Source: an uncultured Parcubacteria group bacterium (lineage in GTDB: Bacteria; Patescibacteriota; Patescibacteriia; UBA9934; CAMTUG01). Taken from it: 64,000 nt of DNA. The stretch is taken from contig CAMTUG010000003.1 of the NCBI GenBank assembly GCA_947084965.1, positions 360-64,359 of the forward strand, in the 5' to 3' direction. The position numbers and the translations under genes were made by a program. This document shows positions 12,309-33,517 of the stretch, one piece after another (positions within the stretch are counted from its first letter, which is position 1; the number at the start of each line of letters is the position of its first letter). The notes under the pieces were generated by a model. That model saw only the letters and a program-made list of their open reading frames with translations, did not search any database and had not been told where the DNA came from.

Positions 12309-12310
12309 GA

Positions 12311-12328: not shown

Positions 12329-12354
12329 CCTATACGTTTACGTTTGTGTATCTG

Positions 12355-13178: not shown

Positions 13179-14215
13179 AACTTTAAATGTTCATAAGCGC
13201 GCGTAGTCGCCATGCGGCCGCGCGGGGTGCGTTCAAGAAGGCCGAGTTGAATCAGGAACGGCTCGACAACCTCTTCGATCGTCTCAAGTTCTTGTGCCGT
13301 CGCAGCCGAGATCGTGGAAAGACCAACGGGGCCGCCTGAAAACTTTTCAATAATCGTCGAAAGCACATGACGGTCGGTAGCATCGAGGCCGACTTCGTCG
13401 ATCTTCAGCATTTCCAGAGCCGCACGGGCAGAAGGAAGGGAAACGTTGCCATCCCCTTTGACCTGAGCAAAGTCACGAACGCGGCGCAACAGACGGTTGG
13501 CGATGCGCGGAGTACGGCGTGAACGGCGAGCGACTTCTCCCTCTGCTTCGCTATCGATCGCGATATTCAATCGAGCCGCATTCCGGCGAACGATCTCGCC
13601 GATCTCCTCGTCATTATAAAAATCAATCTGATGCACCATTCCAAAACGATCACGCAGTGGCGAGGAAAGGAGCGACAGACGCGTCGTCGCACCGATGATC
13701 GTGAAACGCTCAAGGTTGATGCGCAAGGTACGCGCGGTCGGCCCCTTACCCACGACGATGTCGAGAGCAAAGTCTTCCATCGCCGGGTACAACACCTCTT
13801 CAATCGTACGGTTCATGCGATGAATTTCGTCGATGAACAGGACATCCCCCGGGCCGAGATTGGAAAGAATCGCAGCCAAGTCTCCGACGCGCTCGAGTGC
13901 CGGACCGCTGGTCACCCGGATCTGTGCTCCCATTTCGTTTGCTAGCACGTGGGCGAGAGTCGTCTTTCCGAGCCCTGGATTTCCATAAAACAAGACGTGC
14001 TCCAGAGGCTCGCCGCGGCCTTTAGCTGCATCCAAAAAGACGCGCAGGTTATCCTTCAGCGCCTGCTGGCCAACAAAATCTTCCAGTGTTTTCGGGCGCA
14101 GCGTCACTTCGAACGAGCGTTCCTCCTCGGGTGCCCCAGGGGAAACAAGCCGTTCCAAAAGCTGTGGATCTTGTTCAATCATACATGCTTCAAGTATAGC
14201 ACGACCCTTATCCAA
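13175..14215 (-). CDS. ruvB: Holliday junction branch migration helicase RuvB
   Basis: Walker [20 protein letters not shown], with the RuvB N and C domains. Confidence 0.9.
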
Positions 14216-14284
14216 GCCCCATCGCTCCGCAGGCTTCGACCTGCGCCATCTTGTTGGTCATTTAATGTCGCAGGCCGAACCCTG

Positions 14285-14395
14285 CTCCGCGCTGGGGCCA
14301 GCTTGTGCCTTCCGAACCGCGAAGCGGAATCACGTCCGCGACATTAATAGCCAAAAATCTATGTCGCGGCGGGATTCTGCGAAGCGGTGAGGAGG
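14285..14395 (-). repeat. intergenic repeat element, copy A (about 85-90% identical to the copy at 27150-27260 in reverse orientation)
   Basis: The reverse complement of 14341-14395 is cgcagaatcccgccgcgacatagatttttggctattaatgtcgcg. This matches 27165-27205 with 3 mismatches and contains a 9-bp stem ccgcgacat/atgtcgcgg. Confidence 0.6.
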
Positions 14396-14438
14396 GCGCG
14401 AGGAAAACAAAGACGAGAGCGTTTGCTCCCGTCTTGTT

Positions 14439-16526: not shown

Positions 16527-16530
16527 TTTT

Positions 16531-18003
16531 TTGACCTTCCGTCAATTCGCAATTGGGTATATGATGAACACAATTATGGCTCATGAGTCCGGGAAACTCG
16601 CACGCAACACCGCTCTGCAGATCGCCGGAAAGGCGATCGGTATTCTTTTGGGACTCGCGACCGTCGCCGTTCTCTTCCGTTATTTGCAAGAAACGGGATT
16701 CGGAGAGTTCACGACGGCGATCACCTATCTTTCGATCTTTGCGGTGATCGTGGACTTCGGTCTGACCCTCACCACGGTCCAGATGATCTCGGAACCGGGA
16801 GCTGATGAACCGAAGATCCTCGGCAACATCTTTGCCTTACGCATTCTCTCCGGCCTCGTCGTCTTCACCCTCGCTCCGATCATCGCTCTCCTCTTCCCTT
16901 ACAGCCCAATCATCAAGTTAGCGATCGCCGTCGGTTCGATGGCCTACTTCTTCTCCTCCACTTCGCAGATGCTCGGAGGGGTTTTCCAAAAACGCCTCGA
17001 GATGTGGCGCGTCGTTCTGGCTGAGTTGGTCGGACGGTTGATCCTGCTTGTCGGTTCCGTCTTCGTTGCCCTGACCGCCGGATCGATGATCGAAGTCGTC
17101 CTCGCGATCGTCATCGGCAACTTCGCCCAACTAGCCATCACCCTCCTCCTCGCCCGGCCGTTCGTGCGCATCAAATCTGCGATCGACCTCGCTATCTGGA
17201 AGATGATCCTTAGCCGTAGCTGGCCGATCGGAGTCAGTATTATCTTCAACGTCGTCTACCTGCGCGGCGACATCCTCTTCCTTTCTTTCTTCCGCGATGA
17301 CGCCGAAGTCGGTTTCTACGGCGCGGCTTACAAAATCATCGACACCCTCACCGCCATTCCAGTTCTCTTCATGGGGCTGATCCTTCCCATGCTCGTCTCG
17401 GCCTGGTCGGACCACAACAGAGAGCGATTTGCCGCACTGATGCAGAAAAGCTTTGATTTCTTCGTTCTCCTCGGTCTCCCGATCGCCGTTGGTGCCTATG
17501 CCCTCGCTACCCCGCTCATGGTTTTGTTTGGTGGCGAGCGCTTCGCCCCGTCCGGCGCGATCCTTCAAGTCCTCGCCCCGACGATCTTCATCGTCTTTGT
17601 GGGCGCTCTCTACGGCCACGCGATCGTCGGGATCCGCAAGCAAAAACCGATGGCCTTTGGCTATGCCATAACCGCGGTCGTTTCGATCGCCGCCTACCTC
17701 TACTTCGTCCCTCGCTTCGGCGGGATCGGCGCCGCCTGGGTAACGTTCATCTCCGAAGCCCTTCTGGCCGCGATTACCTACATTGTTGTCGTCAAAACAT
17801 CCGGTGCCTCACCGCGTCTCACGATCCTTTGGAAGTCAGCTCTTGCCTGCCTGATCATGTTTGTCACGTTGACCGCAACTCCTGACATGCACGTCCTCCT
17901 CCAGGTGGTCCTTGGCGTCCTCGCTTATACCGCGGCCGCGATCGCCCTTAAGATGATCTCGGTGCGCGAAGTCCGTAACCTCTTCTTAAAGCGCGCCGTA
18001 TGA
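16531..18003 (+). CDS. MOP-superfamily polysaccharide/lipid-II flippase (Wzx/MurJ-like)
   Basis: 490 aa with about 14 TM helices and a polysaccharide-biosynthesis-protein-like layout. The true start may be a few codons downstream. Confidence 0.6.
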   Translation: MTFRQFAIGYMMNTIMAHESGKLARNTALQIAGKAIGILLGLATVAVLFRYLQETGFGEFTTAITYLSIFAVIVDFGLTLTTVQMISEPGADEPKILGNIFALRILSGLVVFTLAPIIALLFPYSPIIKLAIAVGSMAYFFSSTSQMLGGVFQKRLEMWRVVLAELVGRLILLVGSVFVALTAGSMIEVVLAIVIGNFAQLAITLLLARPFVRIKSAIDLAIWKMILSRSWPIGVSIIFNVVYLRGDILFLSFFRDDAEVGFYGAAYKIIDTLTAIPVLFMGLILPMLVSAWSDHNRERFAALMQKSFDFFVLLGLPIAVGAYALATPLMVLFGGERFAPSGAILQVLAPTIFIVFVGALYGHAIVGIRKQKPMAFGYAITAVVSIAAYLYFVPRFGGIGAAWVTFISEALLAAITYIVVVKTSGASPRLTILWKSALACLIMFVTLTATPDMHVLLQVVLGVLAYTAAAIALKMISVREVRNLFLKRAV

Positions 18004-19241
18004 TCTTTCCTATCCTCCTCGGCCTCGTCGCCTTCCTCTTTGCCTACATCGCCTTTAACGACTTGCGCCAGGCGATCATCCTCCTTCTCGGCCTCCTCCC
18101 CACCTACCTCATCCGTTTTTCTATCGGCCCATTCCCGACGACCCTCCTGGAAGTACTCCTCCTTATTCTGATTCTCGTTTGGGTCGTTCGATTTCACGGC
18201 ATCCCTGCGGCCACAACCCTCCACGGACACTGGATCTGGGCGATCCTGCTCCTCATCGCCGCCGCATCGATCGGCGTGAGCGTAGCCCCAGACACCATGG
18301 CCGCACTCGGAATCTGGAAGGCGTACATCATCGAACCGATCCTCCTCTTCCTTATCATTCGAACGACGATTAAAACAAAAACAGATATCGAGTGGGTCTT
18401 TATTGCTCTCGGGATCAGCGCAATCGTTGTCTCTATTTTTGCGATCATCCAATTCCTGACCGGCATCGGCCTCCCGATCCCCTGGGACATCGAACGCCGC
18501 GTCACCAGTTTCTATGATTTCCCAAATGCGGTCGGGTTATTCTTGGGGCCTGTTGTGACGATCGGGCTCGTGCACCTATTTCGTCCAGTCAAAGAAATCA
18601 CGTTCTCTGCCACAGGCCAGCGCTGGTTCTGGGGATTGGTCTCTGCCCTCGGGCTCGTAACGGTCATCCTCGCCAAAACCGAAGCGGCACTCGTTGCGAT
18701 CCCAGCGGCGATCCTGCTCGTTTCCTTCTTATGCAAATCGACACGCAAGTTCACGATCCCGTTCGCGATCCTCCTGGCGATCGTCGCCTTCGCGATCACT
18801 CCGGTCAAAGAAAAACTCCTCCTAGAAGACTACTCTGGCGGCATCCGCCTTTCCCAGTGGCGCGAAACGGCTGAGCTCCTCAAAGACCACGCGCTCTTCG
18901 GCACTGGCCTCTCGGGGTATCCAACAGCTCTCGCTCCGTACCACCAAGACACTTGGATCGAGATCTTCCAATACCCGCACAACATCTTCTTAAACATCTG
19001 GGTAGAATTAGGCCTCCTCGGCCTCGTTGCTTTTGTCCTCCTGGCAATCACCGTCCTGCGCAACTTCCTCCAAAACCGCAATGACCCAACGACGATCATC
19101 GCCTTCACCGCCCTCCTCGAAATGCTGATCCACGGCTTGGTCGACGTCCCCTACTTTAAAAACGACCTGGCCGTTCTAACCTGGGCACTCCTCGCCATCC
19201 TCTCCCTTTCCTCGGTTAAGATTGAACGGAAAAACCCCTAA
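18000..19241 (+). CDS. O-antigen ligase (Wzy_C)-family membrane protein
   Basis: Multi-TM protein with the periplasmic loop motif YPHNIFLNIWVELGLLGL. Confidence 0.6.
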   Translation: MIFPILLGLVAFLFAYIAFNDLRQAIILLLGLLPTYLIRFSIGPFPTTLLEVLLLILILVWVVRFHGIPAATTLHGHWIWAILLLIAAASIGVSVAPDTMAALGIWKAYIIEPILLFLIIRTTIKTKTDIEWVFIALGISAIVVSIFAIIQFLTGIGLPIPWDIERRVTSFYDFPNAVGLFLGPVVTIGLVHLFRPVKEITFSATGQRWFWGLVSALGLVTVILAKTEAALVAIPAAILLVSFLCKSTRKFTIPFAILLAIVAFAITPVKEKLLLEDYSGGIRLSQWRETAELLKDHALFGTGLSGYPTALAPYHQDTWIEIFQYPHNIFLNIWVELGLLGLVAFVLLAITVLRNFLQNRNDPTTIIAFTALLEMLIHGLVDVPYFKNDLAVLTWALLAILSLSSVKIERKNP

Positions 19242-19250
19242 TATGAATGA

Positions 19251-19280
19251 AAAAAACCGAGCGCTTGCTCGGTTTTTTTC
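19251..19280. terminator. bidirectional rho-independent terminator
   Basis: aaaaaaccgagcg-cttg-ctcggttttttt. Confidence 0.75.
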
Positions 19281-19281
19281 A

Positions 19282-19371
19282 TGGCGGAGAGGGAGGGATT
19301 CGAACCCTCGATACCCTTGCGGGTATGCGGCTTTTCGAGAGCCGTCGTTTCGACCACTCACGCACCTCTCC
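19282..19371 (-). tRNA. tRNA-Ser (anticodon CGA), CCA encoded
   Basis: Minus strand: ggagagg acceptor, anticodon loop ctcgaaa, long variable arm, T-arm gagggttcgaatccctc, then cctctcc-g-cca. Confidence 0.75.
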
Positions 19372-20359
19372 TTGTTGTGACGAAATTATTATAACGACAG
19401 ATATGCTTTGGATTATCTGACCCTATTTCGTCGAAGAACTTTTTCACATCTTGCTGTCGCCTCAGAAACACGGAATGTTGTGTCACCTTGTATGAAGGCT
19501 TGAACCCTAATCGTCGAAGCGTAGTAAAGATATCTTGAAGGAACTCCGGCGCATGACTAGTAATCGTCAGCCCGATGTGCGCGTAAAGTTTATGCTTTAT
19601 TTGGTGTTTGTCAAGGAACACGCAACCGTCCGTATCGAATAGTCCTCGAAGGAACGCCCGCTCGAATGACGGCTTGGCGTGAACCCATTCTGGAATACAT
19701 AATCCGTTATCGATCTTCTTTCCTTTTGGAACCCCGAGAGTACGGAGATGCTCAACCATCTGTTTTGAAGAAAACAAAACGAGTGTTGATTTCTCGCCTG
19801 AACGCGATCTGACGGATGCCTTAACCGAAAACAACTCCTCTCCAAGTTCTGCAACAAACTTGGCATGGTCTCCGTCCGTTTCAGAGTTTGTGACCATGAG
19901 AACTTGGTACCTAGCCAGATGACCGTCACCCGCAATAATTCCGACAAACTCTGCCAAGGCCTCGTTCTTCATGGGCATTGAGACTTGTTTCTTCAACCTA
20001 AACCCAGTTTTCAAATTTCGTTGAGCCGCAACCGATTGTAATCCGCCCTTTCGCCGACCTTCCGGAGTACCAAGATCACCATACAATTCCGCCCGGCGTT
20101 GTGCGCCCTTCCTGGCCGCGCCCTGAATATGCCAATAGTCATCAAGATACGTTGGTTGAAATGATTCTGGCTTTTTGTTGACTATAGCAGCAAGCACACG
20201 GAACGCTTCTTCTGAAATCAGATACTTACCTCGCTTCCAATCGCGCATCGTTCGTTCACACACGCCAGCCAACTCACTGAGTTGATGGCAATTAAAACCA
20301 CGCTCCTTCAACTTTCGAAACAGCTCTGTTCGCAAGGTGTCTGATAGTTTGATGCGCAT
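19358..20359 (-). CDS. LAGLIDADG homing endonuclease with N-terminal helix-turn-helix domain
   Basis: Motifs LAEFVGIIAGDGHL and FLRGLFDTDGCV, with an N-terminal HTH (LSELAGVCERTMRDW). The last 4 codons and the TGA stop lie inside the tRNA-Ser 5' end. Confidence 0.8.
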   Translation of the reverse strand: MRIKLSDTLRTELFRKLKERGFNCHQLSELAGVCERTMRDWKRGKYLISEEAFRVLAAIVNKKPESFQPTYLDDYWHIQGAARKGAQRRAELYGDLGTPEGRRKGGLQSVAAQRNLKTGFRLKKQVSMPMKNEALAEFVGIIAGDGHLARYQVLMVTNSETDGDHAKFVAELGEELFSVKASVRSRSGEKSTLVLFSSKQMVEHLRTLGVPKGKKIDNGLCIPEWVHAKPSFERAFLRGLFDTDGCVFLDKHQIKHKLYAHIGLTITSHAPEFLQDIFTTLRRLGFKPSYKVTQHSVFLRRQQDVKKFFDEIGSDNPKHICRYNNFVTTRRGA

Positions 20360-21759: not shown

Positions 21760-22197
21760 ATGGCTCGTGTCAGCACCTACCTCAACTTCCCGCGAACGAC
21801 CGAAGAAGCATTCACCTTTTATAAGTCCGTCTTTGGCGGCGAGTTCCAAGGCGGAATCCACCGCATGGGTGAAGTGCCACATCAGGAAGGGACGCCGGAT
21901 ATGGCCGAGGCAGATAAGAATCTCGTGATGCATATCGCCCTCCCCCTCCTTGGTGATCACGTGCTCATGGGCACGGACGCACCAGAGTCGATGGGGTTCA
22001 ACGTGAAGTTTGGTAACAACATCTACATCAACCTCGAACCAGACACCCGTACGGAAACAAAGCGTCTCTTTGACGGCTTGTCCGCGGGCGGAAAAGTGGA
22101 GATGGCGCTTCAAGAGATGTTTTGGGGCGACTACTTTGGCTCCTGCACGGACAAGTTCGGCGTCCAATGGATGTTCAACTGCGCAAGTAAGGAATAG
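21760..22197 (+). CDS. VOC/glyoxalase-fold protein, PhnB-like
   Basis: YLNFPRTTEEAFTFYKSVFGGE...MHIALPL...FWGDYFGSCTDKFGVQWM. Confidence 0.7.
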   Translation: MARVSTYLNFPRTTEEAFTFYKSVFGGEFQGGIHRMGEVPHQEGTPDMAEADKNLVMHIALPLLGDHVLMGTDAPESMGFNVKFGNNIYINLEPDTRTETKRLFDGLSAGGKVEMALQEMFWGDYFGSCTDKFGVQWMFNCASKE

Positions 22198-22282
22198 AAA
22201 AGGGGAAAACTGGGCTAGGACACCCAGTTTTTCTGTTGTATACTGTGAGAAATTCAATAGGGCGCTGTGGCTCTGTTCTCCT

Positions 22283-23146
22283 ATGCAAATCCGTAAAGTT
22301 GTCATTCCGGTCGCCGGGTACGGGACGCGTTTTTTGCCGGTCACCAAAGCGATGCCGAAAGAGATGTTGCCGATCATCGATAAGCCGGTGATTCAGTACG
22401 TGGTTGAAGAGGCGGTCGCTTCTGGAATCACCGACATTATTCTCGTGACCGGTGCGTCCAAACGGGCGGTTGAAGATCACTTCGACTACAACTACGACTT
22501 GCAGAATTGGCTCAAAAAGCAAGGCAAGCACGAACTGCGCGAGCGGATTAAGTACATCGCCGACATGGCCAACTTTACCTACATCCGCCAAAAAGGTCCG
22601 TACGGCAACGGCACGCCAGTTTTGAACGCCGAACATGTGATCGGTGACGAGCCATTTGCTGTTGTCTGGGGCGATGAATTCTTCTCAAGCAAAACTCCGC
22701 GCCTCAAGCAGTTGATCGACGTTTGGGACAAATACCAGGATCCGGTTTTGACCGGGATGAAGGTCGATAGAGCGGGATTGGATCGCTTTGGGATCGTGAG
22801 CCCGGTCGCTGAAGTTGAAAAAGGCGTTCTGCAAGTCGACGGGATTGTAGAAAAACCGGGGGCCAAAGATGCTCCATCCAACATCGCCGCACTCGGTGGA
22901 TACATTCTCCCTCCAGAAATTTTCGGTGCTCTGAAAAAAACAAAACGCGGCAAAAGCGGCGAAATCTGGCTGGCAGACGCCATCAGCAAACTGACCAAAA
23001 ACCGCCCGATGTACTGCAAGATCGTCGAAGGCGAATACCGCGACACCGGCACCAAGGAAGCCTGGCTCAAAACGAACATCGCCTTGGCTCTCGAAGACAA
23101 GGCCCTCGGACCAGACCTCAGAAAGTACATTAAGACCCTTCTCTAA
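22283..23146 (+). CDS. galU: UTP--glucose-1-phosphate uridylyltransferase
   Basis: MQIRKVVIPVAGYGTRFLPVTKAMPKEMLPIIDKP. The ORF is open upstream, but the conserved N-terminus begins at 22283. Confidence 0.85.
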   Translation: MQIRKVVIPVAGYGTRFLPVTKAMPKEMLPIIDKPVIQYVVEEAVASGITDIILVTGASKRAVEDHFDYNYDLQNWLKKQGKHELRERIKYIADMANFTYIRQKGPYGNGTPVLNAEHVIGDEPFAVVWGDEFFSSKTPRLKQLIDVWDKYQDPVLTGMKVDRAGLDRFGIVSPVAEVEKGVLQVDGIVEKPGAKDAPSNIAALGGYILPPEIFGALKKTKRGKSGEIWLADAISKLTKNRPMYCKIVEGEYRDTGTKEAWLKTNIALALEDKALGPDLRKYIKTLL

Positions 23147-23149
23147 CGT

Positions 23150-24523
23150 ATGCGCCGACTTCTCCCCATCATTCTTCTTACTCTCACCTTAACTGGCCTT
23201 GGCTGTGGCGATGCCGATCAGGCGATCAACACCCCGGTGGCGCTTGAAATTTGGGGCGTGTTCGATAGCGAGCGCAACTACCGCGAAGTCATCGAGGCGT
23301 ATCGTCTCTTGCACCCGAACGTTTCGATTAATTTCCGCCAATTCCGCGCTGAGGAATATGAAACAGAACTTGTGCGCGCTTTGGCCGAAGGGTCCGGCCC
23401 AGACATCTTCCTCGTCCATAACGACTCGATGCGCGAATTTCAGTCTCTCATGATGCCAATGCCAAAAACGCTCACCATCGCCTACCAAGAGGTGCGCGGC
23501 ACGATCAAAAAAGAGATCGTCAACGTGTTGCGCACGGAGCAGACGATTAGTATGCGTTCTTTTGCCGACAAATTTGTCGATGTGGTGGAAGACGACGCTA
23601 TCCTCCCCTACCAGCCCGACCCGAAAGTCGCTCCTGAGGATCGCATCTACGGGCTTCCAACCGGACTCGACACTCTCGCTCTCTACTGGAACAAAGATCT
23701 GCTGAATGCCGCTGGCATCGCCGCCGCACCAACGACCTGGACGGAATTTCAAGAGGCGGTTACGTTGTTGACCAAAATCGACACCGCCGGGACGATCACC
23801 AATTCAGGAGCTGGCATCGGAACGAGTGCGAATGTGGAACGCGCGGTCGACATTCTGGCGCTCCTGATGATGCAAAACGGGACGGTCATGACTGACGAAC
23901 GCGGCCGAGCCACCTTCCACGAAATTCCAGAAGGGCTCTCGCGCAATGAACTCCCCGGCCTTGACGCCACGCGCTTCTACACCGATTTTGCCAATCCGAC
24001 CAAAGCGGTTTACACCTGGAACGCGAGCCGTCCAAATTCTTTCGACGCCTTTGCGAATGGCAGCTCGGCGATGTACTTCGGCTACGCCTATAGTCTCCCG
24101 CTGATTCGCACCGCCGCACCAAAACTCAACTTTAATATCAGTGAAATGCCCCAAATCGAAGGGGGCCGCGAGGTCAATTTCGCCAATTACTGGTTGATGG
24201 CTGTTTCCAAAGACTCCGCCGATTATAACTACGCCTGGGACTTCATTCAGTTCCTCACAACCGAAGAAGAACAGAACGCCAAGTACTTGGGTGCGGCCGG
24301 AAAACCACCGGCCCTGCGCGGCCTGATCGCTTCGCAACTTGAAGACGAAGAGCTCGCGCCGTTTGCTGCACAAGTATTAACGGCTGAATCGTGGTATCGT
24401 GGTAAGGATGCAACCGCGGCAGAGTCAGCCCTGCTCCAGTTGATCGACGCCATTCTCGCCGGGACGATCGATCCAGGCGATGCGATTGATCAAGCCGCAA
24501 GCAAAGTCAATCAAACGTTATGA
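23150..24523 (+). CDS. extracellular solute-binding protein (family 1) lipoprotein
   Basis: Lipobox LTGLGCG and an SBP_bac_1-like length and profile. No cognate permease or ATPase lies adjacent. Confidence 0.6.
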   Translation: MRRLLPIILLTLTLTGLGCGDADQAINTPVALEIWGVFDSERNYREVIEAYRLLHPNVSINFRQFRAEEYETELVRALAEGSGPDIFLVHNDSMREFQSLMMPMPKTLTIAYQEVRGTIKKEIVNVLRTEQTISMRSFADKFVDVVEDDAILPYQPDPKVAPEDRIYGLPTGLDTLALYWNKDLLNAAGIAAAPTTWTEFQEAVTLLTKIDTAGTITNSGAGIGTSANVERAVDILALLMMQNGTVMTDERGRATFHEIPEGLSRNELPGLDATRFYTDFANPTKAVYTWNASRPNSFDAFANGSSAMYFGYAYSLPLIRTAAPKLNFNISEMPQIEGGREVNFANYWLMAVSKDSADYNYAWDFIQFLTTEEEQNAKYLGAAGKPPALRGLIASQLEDEELAPFAAQVLTAESWYRGKDATAAESALLQLIDAILAGTIDPGDAIDQAASKVNQTL

Positions 24524-25146
24524 TCGGAGGAAATTGGAAAGCGGTAAGTGGTAAGTGGAAACGACCTGTCATGATTGGCGTCTCCGCTTTCTTCTTACTG
24601 CTTACTACTTTCCAGGCCCAACCGGCTAAAGCCGATTCCCCCGAAACATACTACGACCAGATCCAACGCTACGGGATCGTCTTTGCTGGGATCTGTACCG
24701 GAGACGACTGTGCCTGCCGCGATCAAGGCAACTGCACCCTCGAAGATGTGTTGCAGGTGTTCGTTAACATCAGCAACTTCATTCTGTCGATCAGCGGGTC
24801 GCTTGTACTCCTCTTCTTTGTCTATGGCGGGTTCATGTTCCTCACCTCCCAAGGGAGCCAGGAAAAAATTCAGACCGGGATGGGGTCGATGAAAGGGGCG
24901 GTCATTGGACTGCTGATCATCTTTGGGGCCTTTGCCGCAATCAACTTCCTGACCGGCGTGCTGCGCGGAGGGACGTATAGTCAAACAAACTACTGCGAAC
25001 TCGTCGCCCCGCCGGACGGCAAAGCCGGACTCGGTTGGGCCTGTCTCGATCTCGATAACCTCGACGAGGATCTCTACACCTGCGAAAGCGGACTCTGCCC
25101 CGGCCCCGCGACTCAAGTCTGCTGTATCGCCACAGAAACTGAATAA
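24520..25146 (+). CDS. pilin-like small secreted protein, paralog 1 (two-TM hairpin core plus Cys-rich C-terminal extension)
   Basis: Signal-anchor, then the core LVLLFFVYGGFMFLTSQGSQEKIQTGMGSMKGAVIGLLIIFGAFAAINF, then a tail with 7 Cys. Its start overlaps the SBP gene stop by 4 nt. Confidence 0.6.
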   Translation: MIGGNWKAVSGKWKRPVMIGVSAFFLLLTTFQAQPAKADSPETYYDQIQRYGIVFAGICTGDDCACRDQGNCTLEDVLQVFVNISNFILSISGSLVLLFFVYGGFMFLTSQGSQEKIQTGMGSMKGAVIGLLIIFGAFAAINFLTGVLRGGTYSQTNYCELVAPPDGKAGLGWACLDLDNLDEDLYTCESGLCPGPATQVCCIATETE

Positions 25147-25149
25147 TCT

Positions 25150-25488
25150 ATGCGCCAACTTTTTTTCCTTACCGTTGCCTCTGCCCTTACCTTGCCGTCT
25201 GCGGCCCTCGCCCAAGACGGCGTCACCCTCGTGAATCCCCTCGCCACGACCGACATTCGTGACATTATCGGGATCGTTATCAAGGCTGCGCTCGGCTTGT
25301 CCGGCTCGATCGCCCTCGTCATGTTTATCTGGGGTGGATTTCTTTGGTTGACGTCGCAAGGAAATACTGAGAAAATTGATGCAGGAAGAAAAACGATGAC
25401 CTGGGCCGCAATCGGATTGGTCGTTCTTTTCTCGGCGTACACGATCGTCAACGCTGTCTTCGAAGCTGCCACCGCGGCTGCCGGATAA
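25150..25488 (+). CDS. pilin-like small secreted 2-TM protein, paralog 2
   Basis: Signal peptide, then ...ALVMFIWGGFLWLTSQGNTEKIDAGRKTMTWAAIGLVVLFSAYTIVNAVF. Confidence 0.65.
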   Translation: MRQLFFLTVASALTLPSAALAQDGVTLVNPLATTDIRDIIGIVIKAALGLSGSIALVMFIWGGFLWLTSQGNTEKIDAGRKTMTWAAIGLVVLFSAYTIVNAVFEAATAAAG

Positions 25489-25513
25489 TTCAAAAAATAA
25501 CTTTAACCAAACT

Positions 25514-25918
25514 ATGACTTACGCACGTGCTCTGCGATTTGGCGTCGGGATCGTCCTCGCCTTCGCCGCCGCCTTCGCTACGATTGGGCTCACGTTACCG
25601 GCCCAGGCCCAGGACGAACTGACTACCGATGATCTCCTTCCAGAAGAATTTGGTAGCGCGACCGGTCTCGGACAGGGTGACCTGAACGAAACGATCGGGG
25701 CGATCATTCGCGCCGCGCTCGGATTCCTCGGGGTGGTCGCGGTCTGTATCATCCTCTTCGGTGGCTTTAAGTGGATGACCGCCGGTGGAAACGAAGAGAA
25801 GGTCGACGAAGCGCGCAAGTTGATCATCGCCGGGATCATCGGTCTGGCGATCATCTTGTCTGCTTACGCTATCGCCTCGTTTGTTATCGATCAACTTGTT
25901 GGAGCAACAACGGGTTAA
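25514..25918 (+). CDS. pilin-like small secreted 2-TM protein, paralog 3
   Basis: ...VCIILFGGFKWMTAGGNEEKVDEARKLIIAGIIGLAIILSAYAIASFVI. Confidence 0.65.
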   Translation: MTYARALRFGVGIVLAFAAAFATIGLTLPAQAQDELTTDDLLPEEFGSATGLGQGDLNETIGAIIRAALGFLGVVAVCIILFGGFKWMTAGGNEEKVDEARKLIIAGIIGLAIILSAYAIASFVIDQLVGATTG

Positions 25919-25989
25919 CCAAAGATCTTTCCCCCGAGGCAACTCGGGGGATGACGTGAGCGGAACTCCAAGAGATCCATTCACGCCAT

Positions 25990-26328
25990 ATGAAACTTGC
26001 ACAAGGAATTGAAGTCGGTGACACCGGCCTCAGCGACACCGCTGGCGCAGCTGGATACGGGACCGCTGGCGATTTGAACGTCATTATCGGCGACATTATC
26101 CAAGTCGCCCTCGGATTCGTCGGCTTCATCTTCTTTGCCTACGTCCTCTACGGCGGATTCCTCTGGATGACCGCCCAAGGAAAGGAAGAGCAGGTACAAA
26201 CCGCGACCGGGATTCTAAAAAACGGGATCGTCGGGCTGATCATCATCAGCGCGTCCTACGCCATCGCTGATTACGTGGTGGGCGCGATCGCCGGCCTCGG
26301 GGCGACCACGGCAACACCAGCCGGATAA
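25990..26328 (+). CDS. pilin-like small secreted 2-TM protein, paralog 4
   Basis: ...FFAYVLYGGFLWMTAQGKEEQVQTATGILKNGIVGLIIISASYAIADYVV. Confidence 0.65.
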   Translation: MKLAQGIEVGDTGLSDTAGAAGYGTAGDLNVIIGDIIQVALGFVGFIFFAYVLYGGFLWMTAQGKEEQVQTATGILKNGIVGLIIISASYAIADYVVGAIAGLGATTATPAG

Positions 26329-26331
26329 CGT

Positions 26332-26694
26332 ATGAATATTCTTCTCGCACAAGCGGACATCGGCGGATTCCTCGACGACGTAGGTCCAGAAGCGGGCCTC
26401 GCTTCGGCCACTGGCGACCCGAACGTCGCCCTGCTTCCCCTAGTCGGTGACATCATCGCGATCGTCCTCGGTCTCCTCGGCGTCGTCTTCCTTCTTCTCA
26501 CCATCTATGCCGGGATCATCTGGATGACGGCTCAGGGAAATGAAGAGAAAGTGGAGAAAGCGATCGGGATTATGAAAACAGCAACGGTCGGACTGATCGT
26601 CACCCTCGCCGCCTACTCCATCGCCAACTTCGTCGTCAGCCGAGTCGGAGACGCGACCGGAACAGCCTCGACGACGACCGGTGGTTCACAATAA
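26332..26694 (+). CDS. pilin-like small secreted 2-TM protein, paralog 5
   Basis: ...LLLTIYAGIIWMTAQGNEEKVEKAIGIMKTATVGLIVTLAAYSIANFVV. Confidence 0.65.
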   Translation: MNILLAQADIGGFLDDVGPEAGLASATGDPNVALLPLVGDIIAIVLGLLGVVFLLLTIYAGIIWMTAQGNEEKVEKAIGIMKTATVGLIVTLAAYSIANFVVSRVGDATGTASTTTGGSQ

Positions 26695-26725
26695 ATCCAA
26701 TTATCATCAAAAATTAAACATCACT

Positions 26726-27091
26726 ATGATCAAATACGCGATTTACGGTGCGGCGATCCTCCTTCCGCTCGTCGGACACGCCCAAGGGGTTACGGGACTG
26801 GAAACGAACCTGGACACGCTCGGCGGTGAAGCCTACGGCACGAGCTCCCCAACCGACCTGTTGACCCTTATCGGTACGGTCATCAACGTTCTCCTCGGGC
26901 TGCTCGGTGTGATCTTCCTTCTTCTCACCATCTACGCCGGTTTCATCTGGATGACGGCACAAGGGAACGAAGAAAAGGTGGAGAAAGCGATCGGTATTTT
27001 GAAAACCGGTATCATCGGGATGATCGTCACGCTCGCCGCTTACTCCATCGCCAACTTCGTGGTGGGAGAAGTCTCGGACGCGACCGCGTAA
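26726..27091 (+). CDS. pilin-like small secreted 2-TM protein, paralog 6
   Basis: MIKYAIYGAAILLPLVGHAQG signal peptide, then ...LLLTIYAGFIWMTAQGNEEKVEKAIGILKTGIIGMIVTLAAYSIANFVV. This is the closest copy of paralog 5. Confidence 0.65.
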   Translation: MIKYAIYGAAILLPLVGHAQGVTGLETNLDTLGGEAYGTSSPTDLLTLIGTVINVLLGLLGVIFLLLTIYAGFIWMTAQGNEEKVEKAIGILKTGIIGMIVTLAAYSIANFVVGEVSDATA

Positions 27092-27106
27092 TCAGACAAA
27101 ATGTTG

Positions 27107-27139
27107 GGGCGAGGTCTTCGGACCTCGCCTTTTGGTTTA
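27107..27139 (+). terminator. rho-independent terminator ending the galU-SBP-pilin-like gene string
   Basis: ggggcgaggtc-ttcg-gacctcgcc-ttttggttt. Confidence 0.8.
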
Positions 27140-27149
27140 GGCCACCTGT

Positions 27150-27260
27150 TTCCTCGCCGCTCCGCAGAATCCCGCCACGACATAGATTCTTGGCCATTAA
27201 TGTCGTGGACGTGATCCTGACTCCGCGGTTCGGAGACAGGTCGCCGTCGAGCAGATCGCC
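27150..27260 (+). repeat. intergenic repeat element, copy B (matches 14285-14395 on the opposite strand)
   Basis: cgcagaatcccgccacgacatagattcttggccattaatgtcgtggacg. The stem is ccacgacat/atgtcgtgg, a compensatory G:C to A:T change relative to copy A. Confidence 0.6.
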
Positions 27261-27331
27261 AGGTTTTATAATAGCGTATAAATGCAGACGTCCTGGCCAC
27301 CGTAGTGTGACCAGGACGTTCGCGGTGAGAA

Positions 27332-28093
27332 CTACTCGCAGCCGCGGCCGGGAAGGCAGGTGTACTGTCCCTGCGTCCGGCCGATGACGGAGTAGCTGTA
27401 GTTGTCGCTATCGGTGATGGTGTAGATGCCGGTGGGGAGCCGGGTCAGCTCGTAGATCTTGAGGGTCCCACCGGTGGCCCCGAGAAACGTCCGGCTGACG
27501 TCCCCGGGCTCGACGACCGAGAGCCACGTGCCTCCCATGCCGTCGACGCGAGCGCCGAGCCGCCTGAGCGCCGCCGGGTCGCCCGTGACCTGGACCGCGG
27601 AAGCTTGCGCCCCGCGGTACTGGACCTGCACGTCGTCATCGAAGACGATCGCGTACGCCTTGCCGGAGGATTCCGGGTTGACGAAGGTCCAGGCCATCGG
27701 GTTCGCCGGCCGGTAGTGCCGCTCGTCCCAGCAGTCGTTCCCCCACACGTCGGACATGGAGTTGAGGGTGGAGCGACCTTCCCAGCCGGCGAAGTTCTCG
27801 CACCGTCCGACCGGGGTCGGGGGCGGCGCGATGTACTGCGTCTGCGGGGCGGGCTGGGCGACGGGGGCCGGGGGCGGGACGGCCGGGGCGGGGATCTCGT
27901 GGACCTTGCATCCGGTCACCGACCCGGTCGCCTGGTCGTACTTCTCGCAGGTGTACACCTGCGAGGTTGCGCAGTTGTACAGGGCGTAGCCGCCGCCCTC
28001 GATCGTGGCGATGTCCTGGCAGGCCAGGGAGACCGCGCGGTCGAGGGTCGTGTCGGCAGAAGCGAGAGAGGCGAAGAGGGCGATGGCGATCAT
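27332..28093 (-). CDS. secreted hypothetical protein (signal peptide, Pro-rich linker, Cys pairs); GC-rich island
   Basis: MIAIALFASLASA signal peptide. Strong G/C third-position bias in this frame. Confidence 0.5.
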   Translation of the reverse strand: MIAIALFASLASADTTLDRAVSLACQDIATIEGGGYALYNCATSQVYTCEKYDQATGSVTGCKVHEIPAPAVPPPAPVAQPAPQTQYIAPPPTPVGRCENFAGWEGRSTLNSMSDVWGNDCWDERHYRPANPMAWTFVNPESSGKAYAIVFDDDVQVQYRGAQASAVQVTGDPAALRRLGARVDGMGGTWLSVVEPGDVSRTFLGATGGTLKIYELTRLPTGIYTITDSDNYSYSVIGRTQGQYTCLPGRGCE

Positions 28094-28184
28094 GGGGGAC
28101 TCCGTAGGTTTTGGGCGATCGCCGGACCCTCACGGGCCGGCGGGGTGTGTGTCTTGTCCGCGACAGGAACACCCCGCCGACGAA

Positions 28185-28790
28185 CTACTTGCTGGCTTCG
28201 GTGTCGAGGACGCGCCACTGGCGCGCGTTCTCGAGCTCGACCGCGGCCAGGCGCGCATCGACAGCGGTCGTGGTCGGCGTGGTGCTGGCGGTGACCACCG
28301 TGCCCGGGGCGGCCCCGTAGCGCGGCATCATGTCGTACCCCGGCACCACGGTCCCGTAGGACGTGTAGCCGGAGCCGGTCACGACGGTCGGCCCGCGGTA
28401 GGGCATCGACCCGCCACCGCTCGCCTGGCCCGGGTACACCGGGTTGACCGAGGAGTAGATGGGGCGGCCCTGCGCGTCGTAGGACAGCACCGTCTGCGCC
28501 GGCACGGCCGAGGTCACCGTCTGGCTGCGCCCGTCCTGGGCCGCCGTCACGGTGTTGTCGCGGTCCATGGCGCGGGCGGTCGCCCCGGCCACGACCAGAC
28601 GGCCGGCGGCGTCCATGCAGGACGTCCCGCCGAGCCCGAGGACGGTGTTGCACGGCACGGTCGCCGTGACGCTGCCGTCGCTCGAGATGGTGACCACCGC
28701 CGACTTCGCGCTGGGGGTGGCCGGCGGGGGCCGGGGGGTGGAATCCTGGGCGAACGCGAGTCCGGCCAGGACGAGGATGAAGATGGACAT
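28185..28790 (-). CDS. secreted hypothetical protein (S/T/G-rich); GC-rich island
   Basis: MSIFILVLAGLAFA signal peptide. GC3-rich frame. Confidence 0.5.
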   Translation of the reverse strand: MSIFILVLAGLAFAQDSTPRPPPATPSAKSAVVTISSDGSVTATVPCNTVLGLGGTSCMDAAGRLVVAGATARAMDRDNTVTAAQDGRSQTVTSAVPAQTVLSYDAQGRPIYSSVNPVYPGQASGGGSMPYRGPTVVTGSGYTSYGTVVPGYDMMPRYGAAPGTVVTASTTPTTTAVDARLAAVELENARQWRVLDTEASK

Positions 28791-28930
28791 GAGAGCCCTC
28801 CTGTGGTGAATTGGGGCGTCTTAGATCTGATCAGTTTGGTGGAAGCAAGATGCTTCCGACCATAAGTCCGAACCAAAACGCCCAAATTCACGGGGCTTTC
28901 CAATCATTTGTTGCCTTAGAGCAACGTACA

Positions 28931-29012
28931 AAGATAGCACAAAAATGGCTTTTTGTCAACCGTCTTCGGGTGCGTCGATGGATTGACAAAATCGCATTTT
29001 TGTGCTATTTTA
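28931..29012 (+). promoter_or_regulatory. sigma70-like promoter TTGACA-17-TATTTT flanked by two related palindromes (candidate operators) in the divergent intergenic region
   Basis: atagcacaaaaatg at 28934-28947 and catttttgtgctat at 28995-29008 are reverse complements. ttgaca at 28983-28988, a 17-nt spacer, and tatttt at 29006-29011. Confidence 0.45.
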
Positions 29013-29141
29013 CTAGGTCCCGTTTGAGCCAGAAATAAGGCCAAATACGGGAAATCCTTGCTCTCTCACAACTGAATAAACCCTGTTGTAAGAGAAATCG
29101 TTTCTCGCGAATCCCAACCTATCACCAATTAGGAGGCCACC

Positions 29142-30368
29142 ATGGCCATTTCCGCTGAAGCCCGCTCGTTCCTCACGGCCCTGGGCCTCGGAGCGATCGG
29201 CGAGTCGGTCTCCGGACCGCTCATCGACGCGATCAAGTCGGCGGCCGGCACCGCCGCGCAGTACGACGCGATCGGGAATTTCCTCGCCGAGACGATCGGT
29301 TCGCTCCCGGAGCCCGCCCGCAAGGCGCTCGCCGGGAAGTTCAAGGTCGTGGCCCACATCGCCTTCGAGGCGATCGAGCTGTGGTTGAAGAACATCCTGC
29401 GCAAGCGGGGCGTGAACCACGTCACGCGCGACGCGATCGTCAACGTCCTCGACGATGTCGGGGATGCGCTCATCACGAGTGCGGCGACGGCGATCACCGA
29501 AGCCGAGTTCAAGCAGATCATCCGAGACGCGGCCGCGGCCCGCAAGGCCAACCCGACCGCGCCCCAGAAGTACCCCCATCCCACCATCACCGCCGCCGAG
29601 CGCGGCACCGGAGCCCCCATGACCATTCACCCCTGGATGACGGAGGTCTGCCCGGCGCTGGTGGGGATCTCCCCGCTCGCGTCCGAGCGCCTCGCGGCGA
29701 TCTTCAAGAAGTACAAGCTCGCGGCGGCGCGGATCGGGGGCGACGACCCGAACGAGCCCCCCTTCGCCCGCAACAGCAAGAAGAACATCCTGGCCCTCCT
29801 GCGAGTGGACCCGGAGCGGGCGCTCGCGATCCTCGAGGATCCGGACATCGACGACGACGAAGCGGAGGAGAAGTTCCTGCTCGCGGGGGAAGTGATCCGC
29901 GACAAGCAGGGCATGGACGCCGACGACATCCTCGACTACCTGGACCACGGCCGCTACCAGATCATCAGCGGGCAGAAGGGCAAGGCGGCGCAGTGGTTGT
30001 ACAAGGGCGGGATCGGACTGATCTCCGCCTACGTGCTCCTCTGCGTGTTCTCCGCCCTGATCCTGGTCATCGGCACGCCCGTGTCGCTGATCGCGACCAT
30101 CTACTTCACCCACTTCCTCGATCCGGTCGTCGAGATCAACGGAGTCCCCCACGTCGCCCTCCCCGAGACCGGTTGGCTGGCGATCTCCTTCGCGATGCTC
30201 GTGTTCTCCCTCGGACAGCTGATGATCCTCAGCGTCCTGTGGGGGCCCATGCGTGCCCTGAAGGCGATCGTCGCCAAGCCGATCCAGATCCTCGTCGACG
30301 CCGCCGAAGCAGTGATGCCCGGCGGCGAACCCGAAACCACCACTACCACCACCGGCGCCGCTCACTAG
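29142..30368 (+). CDS. hypothetical protein with C-terminal TM helices; GC-rich island
   Basis: ATG preceded by aggagg. GC3-rich frame; the other long ORFs overlapping this region are high-GC artefacts. Confidence 0.5.
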   Translation: MAISAEARSFLTALGLGAIGESVSGPLIDAIKSAAGTAAQYDAIGNFLAETIGSLPEPARKALAGKFKVVAHIAFEAIELWLKNILRKRGVNHVTRDAIVNVLDDVGDALITSAATAITEAEFKQIIRDAAAARKANPTAPQKYPHPTITAAERGTGAPMTIHPWMTEVCPALVGISPLASERLAAIFKKYKLAAARIGGDDPNEPPFARNSKKNILALLRVDPERALAILEDPDIDDDEAEEKFLLAGEVIRDKQGMDADDILDYLDHGRYQIISGQKGKAAQWLYKGGIGLISAYVLLCVFSALILVIGTPVSLIATIYFTHFLDPVVEINGVPHVALPETGWLAISFAMLVFSLGQLMILSVLWGPMRALKAIVAKPIQILVDAAEAVMPGGEPETTTTTTGAAH

Positions 30369-30386
30369 GGCGCCACGGAGACTTCC

Positions 30387-31208
30387 ATGAGTTCTACCCC
30401 CACCCCCCCGGCCGGTGGCGCCCCCGCCCCGGCTTCCCCCACCCCCAAGCCGATCGGCGAGGAGCCCGCGGTCCGCAAGGCCCGGGTCGCCCTCGCGGTC
30501 GCCCGACTCGACAAGGAGCGTCGGGCCGCGGAGGAGCCCGACGATCCGGACCTCAAGCGCAAGCCCCTCAGCGCCGCCGAGTCCACCTGGTGGGTCTGGG
30601 GTGTCTGGGTGACCCTCGGAGCCCTGGCCTTCATCGGCCTGGTGCTCCGAGCGGTCTCTCCGCACCTCTCGCTGCACCCGGCGGCCACCGGCGTCGCGAT
30701 GCTGGTGGTCACCATCTCCCTGTTCATGGCCGGACTCAGCCTGCGCAAGACGTTCCCCCACCGCATCGTCCTGGGGAAGTCGCTGAACTACCTGTTCTGG
30801 GGGATGATGATCCTGACGGTCTGGAACGGAACGCGCATCGTCTACGGCTTCGGTGGGATCCCCGTGGACCCCGACCCGCGCAACTGGGCCTGGCCGAGCG
30901 CGGTGGCGACGACCGTCTCGGGCTGGATGACCCCCGAGAGCGACGCGGCGAAGCTGGCCAAGATCGAGGCCGACTTCAAGGCCTGCGCTGCCACGACCGA
31001 CGCGGAGATCCTCAAGGCGTGTGGCGAGATCCGCACGCAGAAGATCGACGCGCTGGCCGGCCGCAAGCCCCCCGCGACGGCCGCCGTGACGCCCACGACC
31101 CCCCCGCCCACGAAGAAGCCGGGGAGCGGGTCGAAGAAGGCGACGGTGAAGCCGGCCTACTGCAGCGACCCGGCCATCGCTGCCCAAATGCCCTCGACCT
31201 GCGGCTGA
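30387..31208 (+). CDS. hypothetical multi-TM membrane protein with Pro/Ala-rich N-terminus; GC-rich island
   Basis: GC3-rich frame. About 4 TM helices and a C-terminal Cys pair. Confidence 0.5.
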   Translation: MSSTPTPPAGGAPAPASPTPKPIGEEPAVRKARVALAVARLDKERRAAEEPDDPDLKRKPLSAAESTWWVWGVWVTLGALAFIGLVLRAVSPHLSLHPAATGVAMLVVTISLFMAGLSLRKTFPHRIVLGKSLNYLFWGMMILTVWNGTRIVYGFGGIPVDPDPRNWAWPSAVATTVSGWMTPESDAAKLAKIEADFKACAATTDAEILKACGEIRTQKIDALAGRKPPATAAVTPTTPPPTKKPGSGSKKATVKPAYCSDPAIAAQMPSTCG

Positions 31209-31241
31209 GCGCTCACGCGCAAAATAGCGGGTCAACGTAAA

Positions 31242-31271
31242 GCGCCCCCGGACATTCTGTTCCGGGGGCGC
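31242..31271. terminator. strong bidirectional rho-independent terminator
   Basis: gcgcccccgga-cattctgt-tccgggggcgc, then ctacttttctc. Confidence 0.8.
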
Positions 31272-31282
31272 CTACTTTTCTC

Positions 31283-32284
31283 TTATTTTTTCATCTGCGC
31301 CTTAAACCAATTGACCCACTGAATCTGTTCCGGATCTGTCTTCATGATCGAGGAGATTTCTGCGGTCACATACGCCCCGAGCTGGATCAGTTCAAACGCT
31401 TGCTCGAGCTTCGTCTTTCCATTCAACGTTATACGCACGATCTGTCCCCCGTTCTTTTTGACGATCTGTTGAGTCAACGGATAACGCTTCTGCACGCGCG
31501 GATGATAAAACTTCGACTCAATAAAGATGAACGACATCTCTTTGATAAGCGTTTTTGGAAACGCCAATCCTTCCATCAGGTGATGATTCAATTCCGGGAT
31601 CGGGAATCGCGCCGCGAACTGCTTAGCACTTTCGTTCATCTGATTGGCAAAGACGTGTGCCGATCCTTCCAGGTGCTCGGAGGCGACCATGACCGGAACG
31701 CGATTCACCAGCTTACGGGCGATCTGCTTCCCTGTCTTGGCTCGTGCCGAATTCTTTCCAAGGTAGGTCACGAGATCAAACACTTCGCGATCAGAAAGTT
31801 TTAAGACTTTGAGCTGCACCAATGCTCCGACGATTCCGAATGTCATGAATCCCGTTCCGTATCGCGGCTGAGGGGCAAAGTCCATTGGGTTGAAAAAATA
31901 TCCTGGCACTTTGTCGCGCTTGGCCCATTTGGCCAGGTCGCCGCCCGCGGCGATCACGAAGATGTTCAGCTTCTTCTTCCGTGCCTCAGCATAAGCCGTG
32001 AGAATCTCCTCCGTCGTACCAGAAAAACTGGAGAGAATCACAAGCGCGCTCTTGTTGGCTGTGGCGGGAAGCTTGTACCCGTTGACCACCTCGATCGGCA
32101 CGGTCAATTGATCAGCAAACACGGATCGTACAACGTGCGCCCCGAGTGCTGAGCCGCCCATGGCGACGACGACCACGTGATTGATCTTGCGGTACGACGC
32201 GGGCAAACGGATCGCTTTTGTTTGCATCCACGCTTCGGTTACCTGTTCATGCATTCGGCTAATCGAGTGAACCAAATTAGACAT
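31283..32284 (-). CDS. bifunctional phosphoglucose/phosphomannose isomerase (SIS-domain, archaeal type)
   Basis: 333 aa SIS-domain protein (HVVVVAMGGSALGAHVV...LVILSSFSGTTEE). Confidence 0.65.
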   Translation of the reverse strand: MSNLVHSISRMHEQVTEAWMQTKAIRLPASYRKINHVVVVAMGGSALGAHVVRSVFADQLTVPIEVVNGYKLPATANKSALVILSSFSGTTEEILTAYAEARKKKLNIFVIAAGGDLAKWAKRDKVPGYFFNPMDFAPQPRYGTGFMTFGIVGALVQLKVLKLSDREVFDLVTYLGKNSARAKTGKQIARKLVNRVPVMVASEHLEGSAHVFANQMNESAKQFAARFPIPELNHHLMEGLAFPKTLIKEMSFIFIESKFYHPRVQKRYPLTQQIVKKNGGQIVRITLNGKTKLEQAFELIQLGAYVTAEISSIMKTDPEQIQWVNWFKAQMKK

Positions 32285-33392
32285 ACGGGATTTTTTCTTT
32301 AATCAATCTGGTTAGGTCCGCCCGCTCGCTATTGCGATTGACGAGCGTTGCTCCAACCATTCTACCACCGCGGATAAATTTCTGAACGACCCCGCCGTCC
32401 GCGTCCGATCCTTCGACGACGACCCGCTCTGCTGCCGCTCGGTCCGTGTCCCCGATAAAAATCACTTCCATCCCCCGGCAGTTCGTGGCGTACGAACTGA
32501 CCAGTTCAAACTTGGTGCGTTCCCCGAACATCGTTTTGGCCACGGTGCGACCCTGCATCGTAGCGCTCATCCAATTGCCGACGATCAATTGACGATCCGC
32601 AATGACATCAAAAAACTCAGCAACGTCGCCGGCGGTGAAAACGTCTGAAATATTCGTCTCGAGATACTCGTTTGCTTTGATCCCTTCGCCCACTTCGATC
32701 CCGGCTTCAGAGATCCACTTAAGGTCAGGAGTAATGCCGATCCCGACACCAAGAAGCGCGAACTCTTCTGGTGACTCGACGGTCGTCTTGGTGTGTACCG
32801 TGATTCCATCCGCTTCGGCCTTCCGTCGAATCAACTCCGAAGAATCACGATCGAGCGCGCGACCAAAAAATGTTTCGCCGCGCAAAAAGAGATCCGCTTT
32901 CAGTTTGCGCTCAGCAAAGATGTTGATGTACTCAAGAGCGATGAACCCTCCGCCAACGATGCCGACGCGGCCGCTTTCGTATTCGTTCATCAGCTGGAGC
33001 AGATGATCCGCATCGTCAAGCGTGCGGAAGTACGAAACTCCGCGCGCGTCACCAGAAACGAGCTTCACTTCCCCGCCAGTCACCAGAAGCAATTTGTCGT
33101 ATTCGTATTCACGACCGTCGGACGCGGCGACAAACTTATTTTTAACGTCAAGCGACTCCGCGATCACTCCGGGCAACCAATCGATCTTCTGCTCGTCGTA
33201 CCACTCCGGCTTTTTCAAAAAAACGCGTTCGCGCGGAACTTTGGCTTTGATGTAGTGCGGCAACAAGACGCGAGAATACAAACGGTGTTGTTCTTCACTC
33301 AAAATCGTAATCTCTGATTCGGGGTCTAGCTTGCGGAGTTCTTCGGCCGCGCTGGTGCCAGCAATCCCTCCGCCGATGATGAGATAGCGCAT
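32277..33392 (-). CDS. FAD/NAD(P)-binding pyridine-nucleotide-disulfide oxidoreductase (ferredoxin reductase-like)
   Basis: Two Rossmann motifs: YLIIGGGIAGTSAA and RVGIVGGGFIALE. Confidence 0.7.
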   Translation of the reverse strand: MRYLIIGGGIAGTSAAEELRKLDPESEITILSEEQHRLYSRVLLPHYIKAKVPRERVFLKKPEWYDEQKIDWLPGVIAESLDVKNKFVAASDGREYEYDKLLLVTGGEVKLVSGDARGVSYFRTLDDADHLLQLMNEYESGRVGIVGGGFIALEYINIFAERKLKADLFLRGETFFGRALDRDSSELIRRKAEADGITVHTKTTVESPEEFALLGVGIGITPDLKWISEAGIEVGEGIKANEYLETNISDVFTAGDVAEFFDVIADRQLIVGNWMSATMQGRTVAKTMFGERTKFELVSSYATNCRGMEVIFIGDTDRAAAERVVVEGSDADGGVVQKFIRGGRMVGATLVNRNSERADLTRLIKEKIPYV

Positions 33393-33397
33393 AGATT

Positions 33398-33517
33398 AAA
33401 AATTCGAAAACCGAAATACGAAACTCGAAACATATTTAAATCGGAAACAGAAAATTTTCAAACTTTCCTTTTTTGATTTCCGATTGTTTCGTATTTCGAT
33501 ATTCGTATTTCGTATTT
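33398..33517. repeat. intergenic inverted-repeat element built of (A)AATACGAAAT units, locus 1
   Basis: The reverse complement of 33487-33517 is aaatacgaaatacgaatatcgaaatacgaaa. This is identical to 55290-55320, and the flanks are also similar. Confidence 0.6.

Follow-up and report, generated by a model that had tools for sequence, protein, structure and literature searches.

What kind of element is a short palindromic repeat that occurs twice, in opposite directions, between the genes of a bacterial chromosome, and in which a base pair of a hairpin stem has changed on both arms at once? The 64-kb stretch of DNA analysed here (the window) raises this question at two loci. It is chromosomal DNA of a groundwater bacterium of the Patescibacteria, close to Uhrbacteria, with dnaA, dnaN, recA, ftsK, ribosomal and tRNA genes. 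The nearest relatives of its RuvB protein (78-81%) come from Hainich groundwater. A structured non-coding RNA or a MITE-like element had been proposed for this repeat. The MITE-like reading is favoured by the data presented below, and the structured RNA is the less favoured of the two on account of Rfam, promoter, orientation, relatives and assembly breaks.

Copies of the repeat in the window and beyond

Copy B lies at 27148-27240 on the plus strand and copy A, inverted relative to B, at 14305-14396 on the minus strand, so that they form inverted repeats 12.8 kb apart. A repeat search of the whole window aligned 14329-14393 with 27151-27215 as an inverted repeat (65 nt, 91% complementary) and gave no second long-range pair of this kind in the 64 kb. 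The pairwise alignment of A and B over about 93 nt contains 77 identical positions (about 85% identity) and 3 gap columns, and 12 of its 14 mismatches are transitions. Within a core of 87-88 nt, the two copies differ by 10 substitutions, all of which are transitions, and by one indel. Sub-patterns of 20-22 nt are unique to A and B, with none expected in shuffled sequences, and alignment of wider regions showed the flanks of the two copies to be unrelated. The original prediction gave a repeat of about 110 bp with 85-90% identity and opposite orientations; orientation and identity stand, but the length is about 93 nt. B ends near 27240 and not at 27260, and the segment 14285-14304 that had been assigned to A is part of a third copy.

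This diverged third copy, A', is located at 14213-14304 on the plus strand. It is upstream of ruvB, 31 nt from the ATG at 14182. It was found by an unfiltered covariance-model scan of the window (25.7 bits, E 5e-4) before it had been included in any model. The model R1 was built from A and B, and the second model, R2, includes A'. Copy B scores 110 bits with R1, and the score of A is 113 bits. A' is identical to A and B at 59-62 of about 93 positions and differs from them by 25-30 substitutions plus indels (about 35% divergence); CGCTCCGCAG, TTGG..CATT.AATGTCG and CTCCGCG are common to A' and A/B. A' (plus strand) and A (minus strand) abut at 14304/14305 as an inverted, tail-to-tail dimer, while B is a singleton. 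All three copies, at two loci within 64 kb, are intergenic, and a scan with R2 revealed no fourth copy in the window.

Further copies are indicated by an independent assembly (Logan, ERR3478686), in which four contigs are 100% identical to the window (11736-14385, 14357-19307, 22099-27187 and 27160-33516). In A as well as in B, the contig coming from the 5' side reaches as far as element position 40, and the one from the 3' side ends at position 12/13. The contig pairs overlap by 28-29 nt within A and within B, an overlap typical of a branch point in a k=31 graph. Since the longest exact word shared by the copies of the window is 14 nt, and 9 nt with their own reverse complements, these copies cannot cause the branches. 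Other sequences in the sample must therefore share words of about 30 nt with A and, separately, with B. This implies that the family is multi-copy beyond the three copies read, as judged from assembly breaks and not from a count. Of the four contig ends outside the element, three fall in repeated sequence as well (tRNA-Leu, tRNA-Ser and a 31-nt perfect repeat); the end at 22099 does not.

The 31-nt sequence is AT-rich (TTTCGTATTTCGATATTCGTATTTCGTATTT) and forms a perfect inverted pair, at 33487-33517 and 55290-55320, 21.8 kb apart. Its copy at 33487-33517 is upstream of the Pyr_redox/PGI genes and inside a palindrome with 48-nt arms (33407-33517), and the independent contig ends there. The other copy is upstream of the EF-P gene. 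The pair may represent an operator common to both sites, or a further repeat family.

Architecture and maintenance of the hairpin

The 9-bp stem and 16-nt loop described originally are present at both loci letter for letter when the sequence is read directly. In B, ccacgacat (27175-27183) faces atgtcgtgg (27200-27208) across the loop agattcttggccatta; in A, ccgcgacat (14338-14346) faces atgtcgcgg (14363-14371), again across 16 nt. The double change from G:C to A:T across both stem arms is likewise exact. However, the hairpin is not limited to this stem, because A and B each form, over their entire length, a single imperfect hairpin of about 30 bp. Each copy spans about 90 nt and has five short helices. 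From the foot upwards, the order in A and B is an outer stem, GCCGC/GCGGU, an internal loop, CAG/CUG, AUC/GAU, CG/CG, the 9-bp apical stem and the 16-nt loop. The two arms are inverted repeats over their full length, as the terminal inverted repeats of a MITE should be.

The computed free energies of A and B are in the range of -45 to -57 kcal/mol, with z-scores of -5.4 to -8.5, and no shuffled sequence was as stable; over the three copies the z-scores range from -4.5 to -8.5. The two strands of B are nearly equal in stability (-45.4 kcal/mol, z -6.8, versus -46.6 kcal/mol). In A and A' the complement strand has three additional G:U pairs and is about 11 kcal/mol more stable: the values are -46.2 kcal/mol on the minus strand of A and -57.0 kcal/mol on its complement, and -43.9 and -55.2 kcal/mol on the two strands of A'. 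A' has the same hairpin architecture, with a middle helix UUCG/CGAA versus AAUC/GAU in A and B, an additional U:A pair inserted on both arms of the apical stem, and an outer stem GCCCCA/UGGGGC. The feet of the hairpin are specific to each copy yet complementary within it, being CCTGTTTCC/GGAGACAGG in B, GCC.TCC/GGA.GGC in A and GCCCCA/TGGGGC in A'. Two unpaired motifs are kept, namely CTYCGC on both arms of every copy and TTGGYYATT in the apical loop of all three.

Simulated mutants allowed us to compare the retention of this fold with chance. After 10 random transitions, copy B folded with -32.7 +/- 5.8 kcal/mol, and 1% of the mutants were as stable as A. When A or B was mutated by as many transitions and transversions as separate them from A', the fold dropped to -23 +/- 5 kcal/mol, and none of 1000 mutants reached the stability of A' on either strand. 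A five-row alignment fitted with the covariance model points in the same direction: standard pairs fill 94.6% of the cells, versus 29-44% when the partners are slid by 1-3 columns, and seven pairs have changed on both sides. In reading these values, it must be borne in mind that the five rows include two reverse complements of other rows and that the alignment was fitted to the structure. With these caveats, the conclusion of a maintained fold stands, and more than a single base pair supports it. The non-random maintenance suggested at first from a single covarying pair is thus more strongly supported than it could be at that stage, both by the fold kept in A' and by the pairing in the alignment.

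Position of the copies and comparison with relatives

Copy A lies between ruvB and the gene for a SpoIID-domain protein, in agreement with the neighbours named originally, and copy B follows the last of six tandem T4SS-type pilin genes. Both are placed just beyond an intrinsic terminator. The terminator of the last pilin gene (26681-27091) occupies 27106-27141 on the plus strand and has a stem of 11 bp with a T-rich tail after it. From the end of this stem to the foot of the B hairpin the distance is 13 nt, and the T-tail region ends 7 nt before the modelled start of the element at 27148. The SpoIID-domain gene (14439-16526) has its terminator at 14400-14435 on the minus strand, with an 11-bp stem followed by TGTTTT; the stem ends 12 nt before the foot of the A hairpin and the tail region 4 nt before the modelled start at 14396. 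We considered whether these terminators could belong to the repeat. This was rejected, as the likeness of the two terminators is one of shape, with no convincing similarity in sequence. A and B are co-directional with the genes upstream of them and A' has the opposite direction, the family being found in both orientations relative to its neighbours. No match to a sigma-70-like promoter was detected in front of A, B or A'. Among the approximately 60 ORFs of the window, none encodes a transposase, RAYT (Y1), integrase or reverse-transcriptase domain. Likewise, neither the window nor the corresponding loci of relatives contain an insertion sequence with the same ends that could be the parent.

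The window probably also contains the chromosomal replication origin. At about 44000-48100 the cumulative GC skew is lowest, and rnpA, on the opposite strand, comes after dnaN and dnaA. With the origin at this place, A, B and A' are probably all on one replichore.

Scanning about 92 kb of relatives' loci, including both syntenic sites, with the covariance models R1 and R2 gave no element. Around B, the gene order is shared with a relative: NifU, Pyr_redox, PGI, four unknown genes, the pilin array, SBP and NTP_transferase. The site syntenic with B in this relative is a convergent intergenic region of 78 nt with one bidirectional terminator, versus 240 nt in the window. At the A/A' site, three relatives (L007, L017 and L006) have the order ruvB, a 90-aa gene and bPH2, then Peptidase_S11 and SpoIID. 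In the window (12355-14439), the block of ruvB, an 87-aa gene and bPH2 is inverted, Peptidase_S11 is missing, and the A'/A dimer takes its place. An inversion of the ruvB block by recombination between two copies of the element is not supported, as the other breakpoint (12308-12355) consists of a 46-nt terminator alone, with no copy or remnant.

It had been pointed out that B sits at the boundary of a GC-rich island. The GC-rich neighbour exists but has no special meaning for the element, since a relative has the same slot with four GC-rich genes. The block at 27332-31208 has a GC content of 61-66% and contains four genes (27332-28093 and 28185-28790 on the minus strand, 29142-30368 and 30387-31208 on the plus strand), none of which gave a Pfam, PHROG or NCBIfam match. 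In the relative L022, positions 4209-8056, in the slot between PGI and the pilin array, hold four genes that resemble these in length and agree with them in orientation, in DNA that is also GC-rich in appearance. The two of the four gene pairs that were compared by BLASTP are not alignable (E 22 and 0.14). The block looks like a positionally conserved, very fast-evolving cassette beside the pilin genes and not a foreign island. The idea that it is a recent insertion bounded by the element was rejected because the slot is conserved in the relative and the other end of the block has no copy. Between the divergent genes of this cassette, an inverted repeat with 36-nt arms (28924-29018, 81% complementary) looks like an operator or a divergent promoter region. 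The six tandem paralogous T4SS_pilin genes (TrbC/VirB2-like) occupy 24520-27091, and the same array is present in L022.

Nature of the element

The Rfam search of the window that had been suggested matched no family to the element: only six tRNAs pass the gathering threshold, and at E = 10 both loci give merely sub-threshold hairpin noise of the miRNA type. A 23-base gapped stem pattern had two chance matches among GTDB species representatives, in alphaproteobacterial coding DNA, and no copy. The JGI metagenomes contained no match to a purine/pyrimidine-tolerant pattern or to a three-copy consensus pattern, and the viral contigs none to the latter. BLAST of copy B against plasmids and phages gave no match. 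Concatenated translations of the open frames of the element matched nothing in the protein database, where spurious ORFs annotated over other copies would have shown up, and a full-text literature search returned no description of REP- or MITE-type repeats in Patescibacteria. The element is thus new in that it has no Rfam family and no similar sequence in the collections searched, while the kind of element is already known.

REP and REPIN sequences are present in tens to hundreds of copies per genome and have a cognate RAYT, an IS200/IS605-type Y1 transposase. The window has three copies in 64 kb, with more implied by the assembly breaks, and no RAYT among its approximately 60 ORFs. The resemblance lies in an extragenic, imperfect palindrome near the 3' ends of genes with compensatory changes in the stem, in tail-to-tail dimers, in a lineage-specific distribution and in insertion without target-site duplication, as known for REP, BIME and REPIN (PMC3733652; PMC3116915). 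Compensatory stem changes, dimers of the HH and TT types and a location near the 3' ends of genes have been described for REP families (PMC3733652), so that compensatory changes are by themselves no argument for an RNA. REPs have also been reported within pre-existing small palindromes (PMC3733652), which would fit the copy-specific, complementary feet seen here. The element differs from REPs by its size, a single unit of about 90 nt versus 20-40 nt, and by its loop of 16 nt versus 4-5 nt. Because its arms are not palindromes themselves, it is not a REP doublet either. The terminal GTAG or CGTC tag is absent, and neither GTAG nor CTAC occurs in any of the three copies. Next to the apical stem of A and B there is a GACG, which reads CGTC on the complement; its position is internal, however, and A' has no GACG. 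A CGTC-tagged REP family was therefore rejected, given also the 16-nt loop in place of 4-5 nt (criteria in PMC3733652). In summary of this comparison, the element cannot be placed with confidence in the REP family proper: it has no tag, its unit is too long and no RAYT is among the window ORFs.

Hairpin-type MITEs (Correia/NEMIS, ERIC and RUP) and the Rickettsia palindromic elements offer another comparison, as they too are non-coding, full-length imperfect palindromes of about 90-150 bp dispersed between genes. The Rickettsia palindromic elements illustrate that such repeats occur in reduced genomes. None of these families is similar in sequence to the element, which differs from them also by its copy-specific outer stems. 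Correia elements are flanked by a TA target-site duplication. No target-site duplication was found at A, B or A', whose boundaries are somewhat fuzzy; the flanking bases are complementary and not direct repeats (CCTGT...ACAGG in B, GCC...GGC in A and GCCCCA...TGGGGC in A'). Membership among classical MITEs fails on this point. Integron attC sites share with the element a hairpin of variable sequence and conserved structure, with conserved unpaired bases, at the 3' end of genes. In contrast to attC, the three copies have no R''/R' core sites (RYYYAAC/GTTRRRY), and there is no integrase and no cassette array in the window.

We consider it probable, at roughly 60%, that the element is a mobile or formerly mobile, selfish palindromic repeat specific to this lineage, behaving like a REP/REPIN or a hairpin-type MITE. 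The palindromic non-coding unit of about 90 nt, the inverted dimer, the placement beyond terminators, the two orientations, the lineage restriction, the absence from orthologous sites, the association with a synteny break and the fragmentation of the assembly all argue for this reading. Such a repeat would spread by copying at the DNA level, either by transposition with an enzyme encoded elsewhere in the genome or by recombination, and the copying process may recognise either the two inverted arms or the single strand in its folded form. Recognition of this kind would explain why both arms change jointly, and the fold would persist because the hairpin is required by the copying machinery or by a binding protein. 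In a compact genome, the only insertions to survive may be those in non-essential DNA just past terminators, and an effect on transcript ends, if any, would be secondary. Counted against the mobile repeat are the small number of copies read (three), the missing transposase, target-site duplication and end tag in the window, and the lack of copies in the GTDB, JGI, viral, plasmid and phage searches. Moreover, conserved unpaired motifs and co-varying helices are equally expected of a functional RNA.

This last point is the basis for seeing in the element a structured RNA, which could be either a cis structure at transcript ends (a barrier to 3' exonucleases or a back-up terminator for read-through) or a multi-copy sRNA. 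The very stable folds (z -4.5 to -8.5), the helices that co-vary while the loop and internal-loop motifs stay, and the co-directional location of A and B downstream of genes are consistent with it. The three extra G:U pairs and about 11 kcal/mol gained on the complement of A/A' hint at one preferred strand. However, at A the strand with the more stable fold is antisense to the genes, at B neither strand is preferred, and A and A' are opposed. The absence of an Rfam match apart from sub-threshold noise even at E = 10, the lack of a promoter-like site, the position of the element after and not before strong terminators, and its absence from the orthologous sites of relatives also count against an RNA, which we regard as unlikely. 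A palindromic site acting as duplex DNA, bound by a nucleoid protein or used by a site-specific recombinase, and maybe involved in local inversion or deletion, would account for the location of A/A' exactly at the junction of the inverted ruvB-87aa-bPH2 block, with the missing Peptidase_S11, in comparison with the three relatives. The arrangement of A and B as inverted repeats 12.8 kb apart and the conservation of CTYCGC on both arms would also suit it. Against this, the breakpoint at 12308-12355 has no copy or remnant and the window no recombinase gene, and selection on a duplex site would preserve the sequence instead of changing both arms jointly; we see little chance that such a site is the explanation. 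Finally, three copies at just two loci 13 kb apart could be the neutral, inactive leftover of a local duplication, with an accidental or inherited hairpin. This is hard to reconcile with the unrelated flanks, with the fold that A' has kept at about 35% divergence (0 of 1000 simulations) and with the assembly breaks that suggest further copies, and appears highly improbable.

If the mobile-repeat reading is correct, the finding would be a modest addition to genome dynamics: Patescibacteria have very small and tightly packed genomes, and a palindromic repeat that proliferates in them would help to explain why their assemblies are fragmented. The repeat would also mark a synteny break, i.e. the inversion of the ruvB block and the loss of Peptidase_S11. 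Mechanistically this would be unsurprising; a new mechanism would come into view only with the discovery of a cognate enzyme or a transcript. Of wider consequence, but rather doubtful, is the notion of a functional structured nucleic acid specific to the lineage, whether an RNA (at transcript ends or as sRNA) or a single-stranded DNA hairpin for a putative, possibly domesticated, enzyme. If this were true, the CTYCGC motif of the internal loop and the TTGGYYATT apical loop would be the recognition determinants, and the Candidate Phyla Radiation would have its first described REP-like system, or a new class of RNA.

As a separate observation, the window contains two LAGLIDADG_3 ORFs on the minus strand, at 5306-6039 (220 aa) and 19282-20359 (333 aa). 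Both end inside the 5' end of a tRNA gene with a long arm (tRNA-Leu-tag and tRNA-Ser-cga). Such juxtaposition of a homing-endonuclease-like gene and a tRNA gene is unusual, and it occurs twice in this window.
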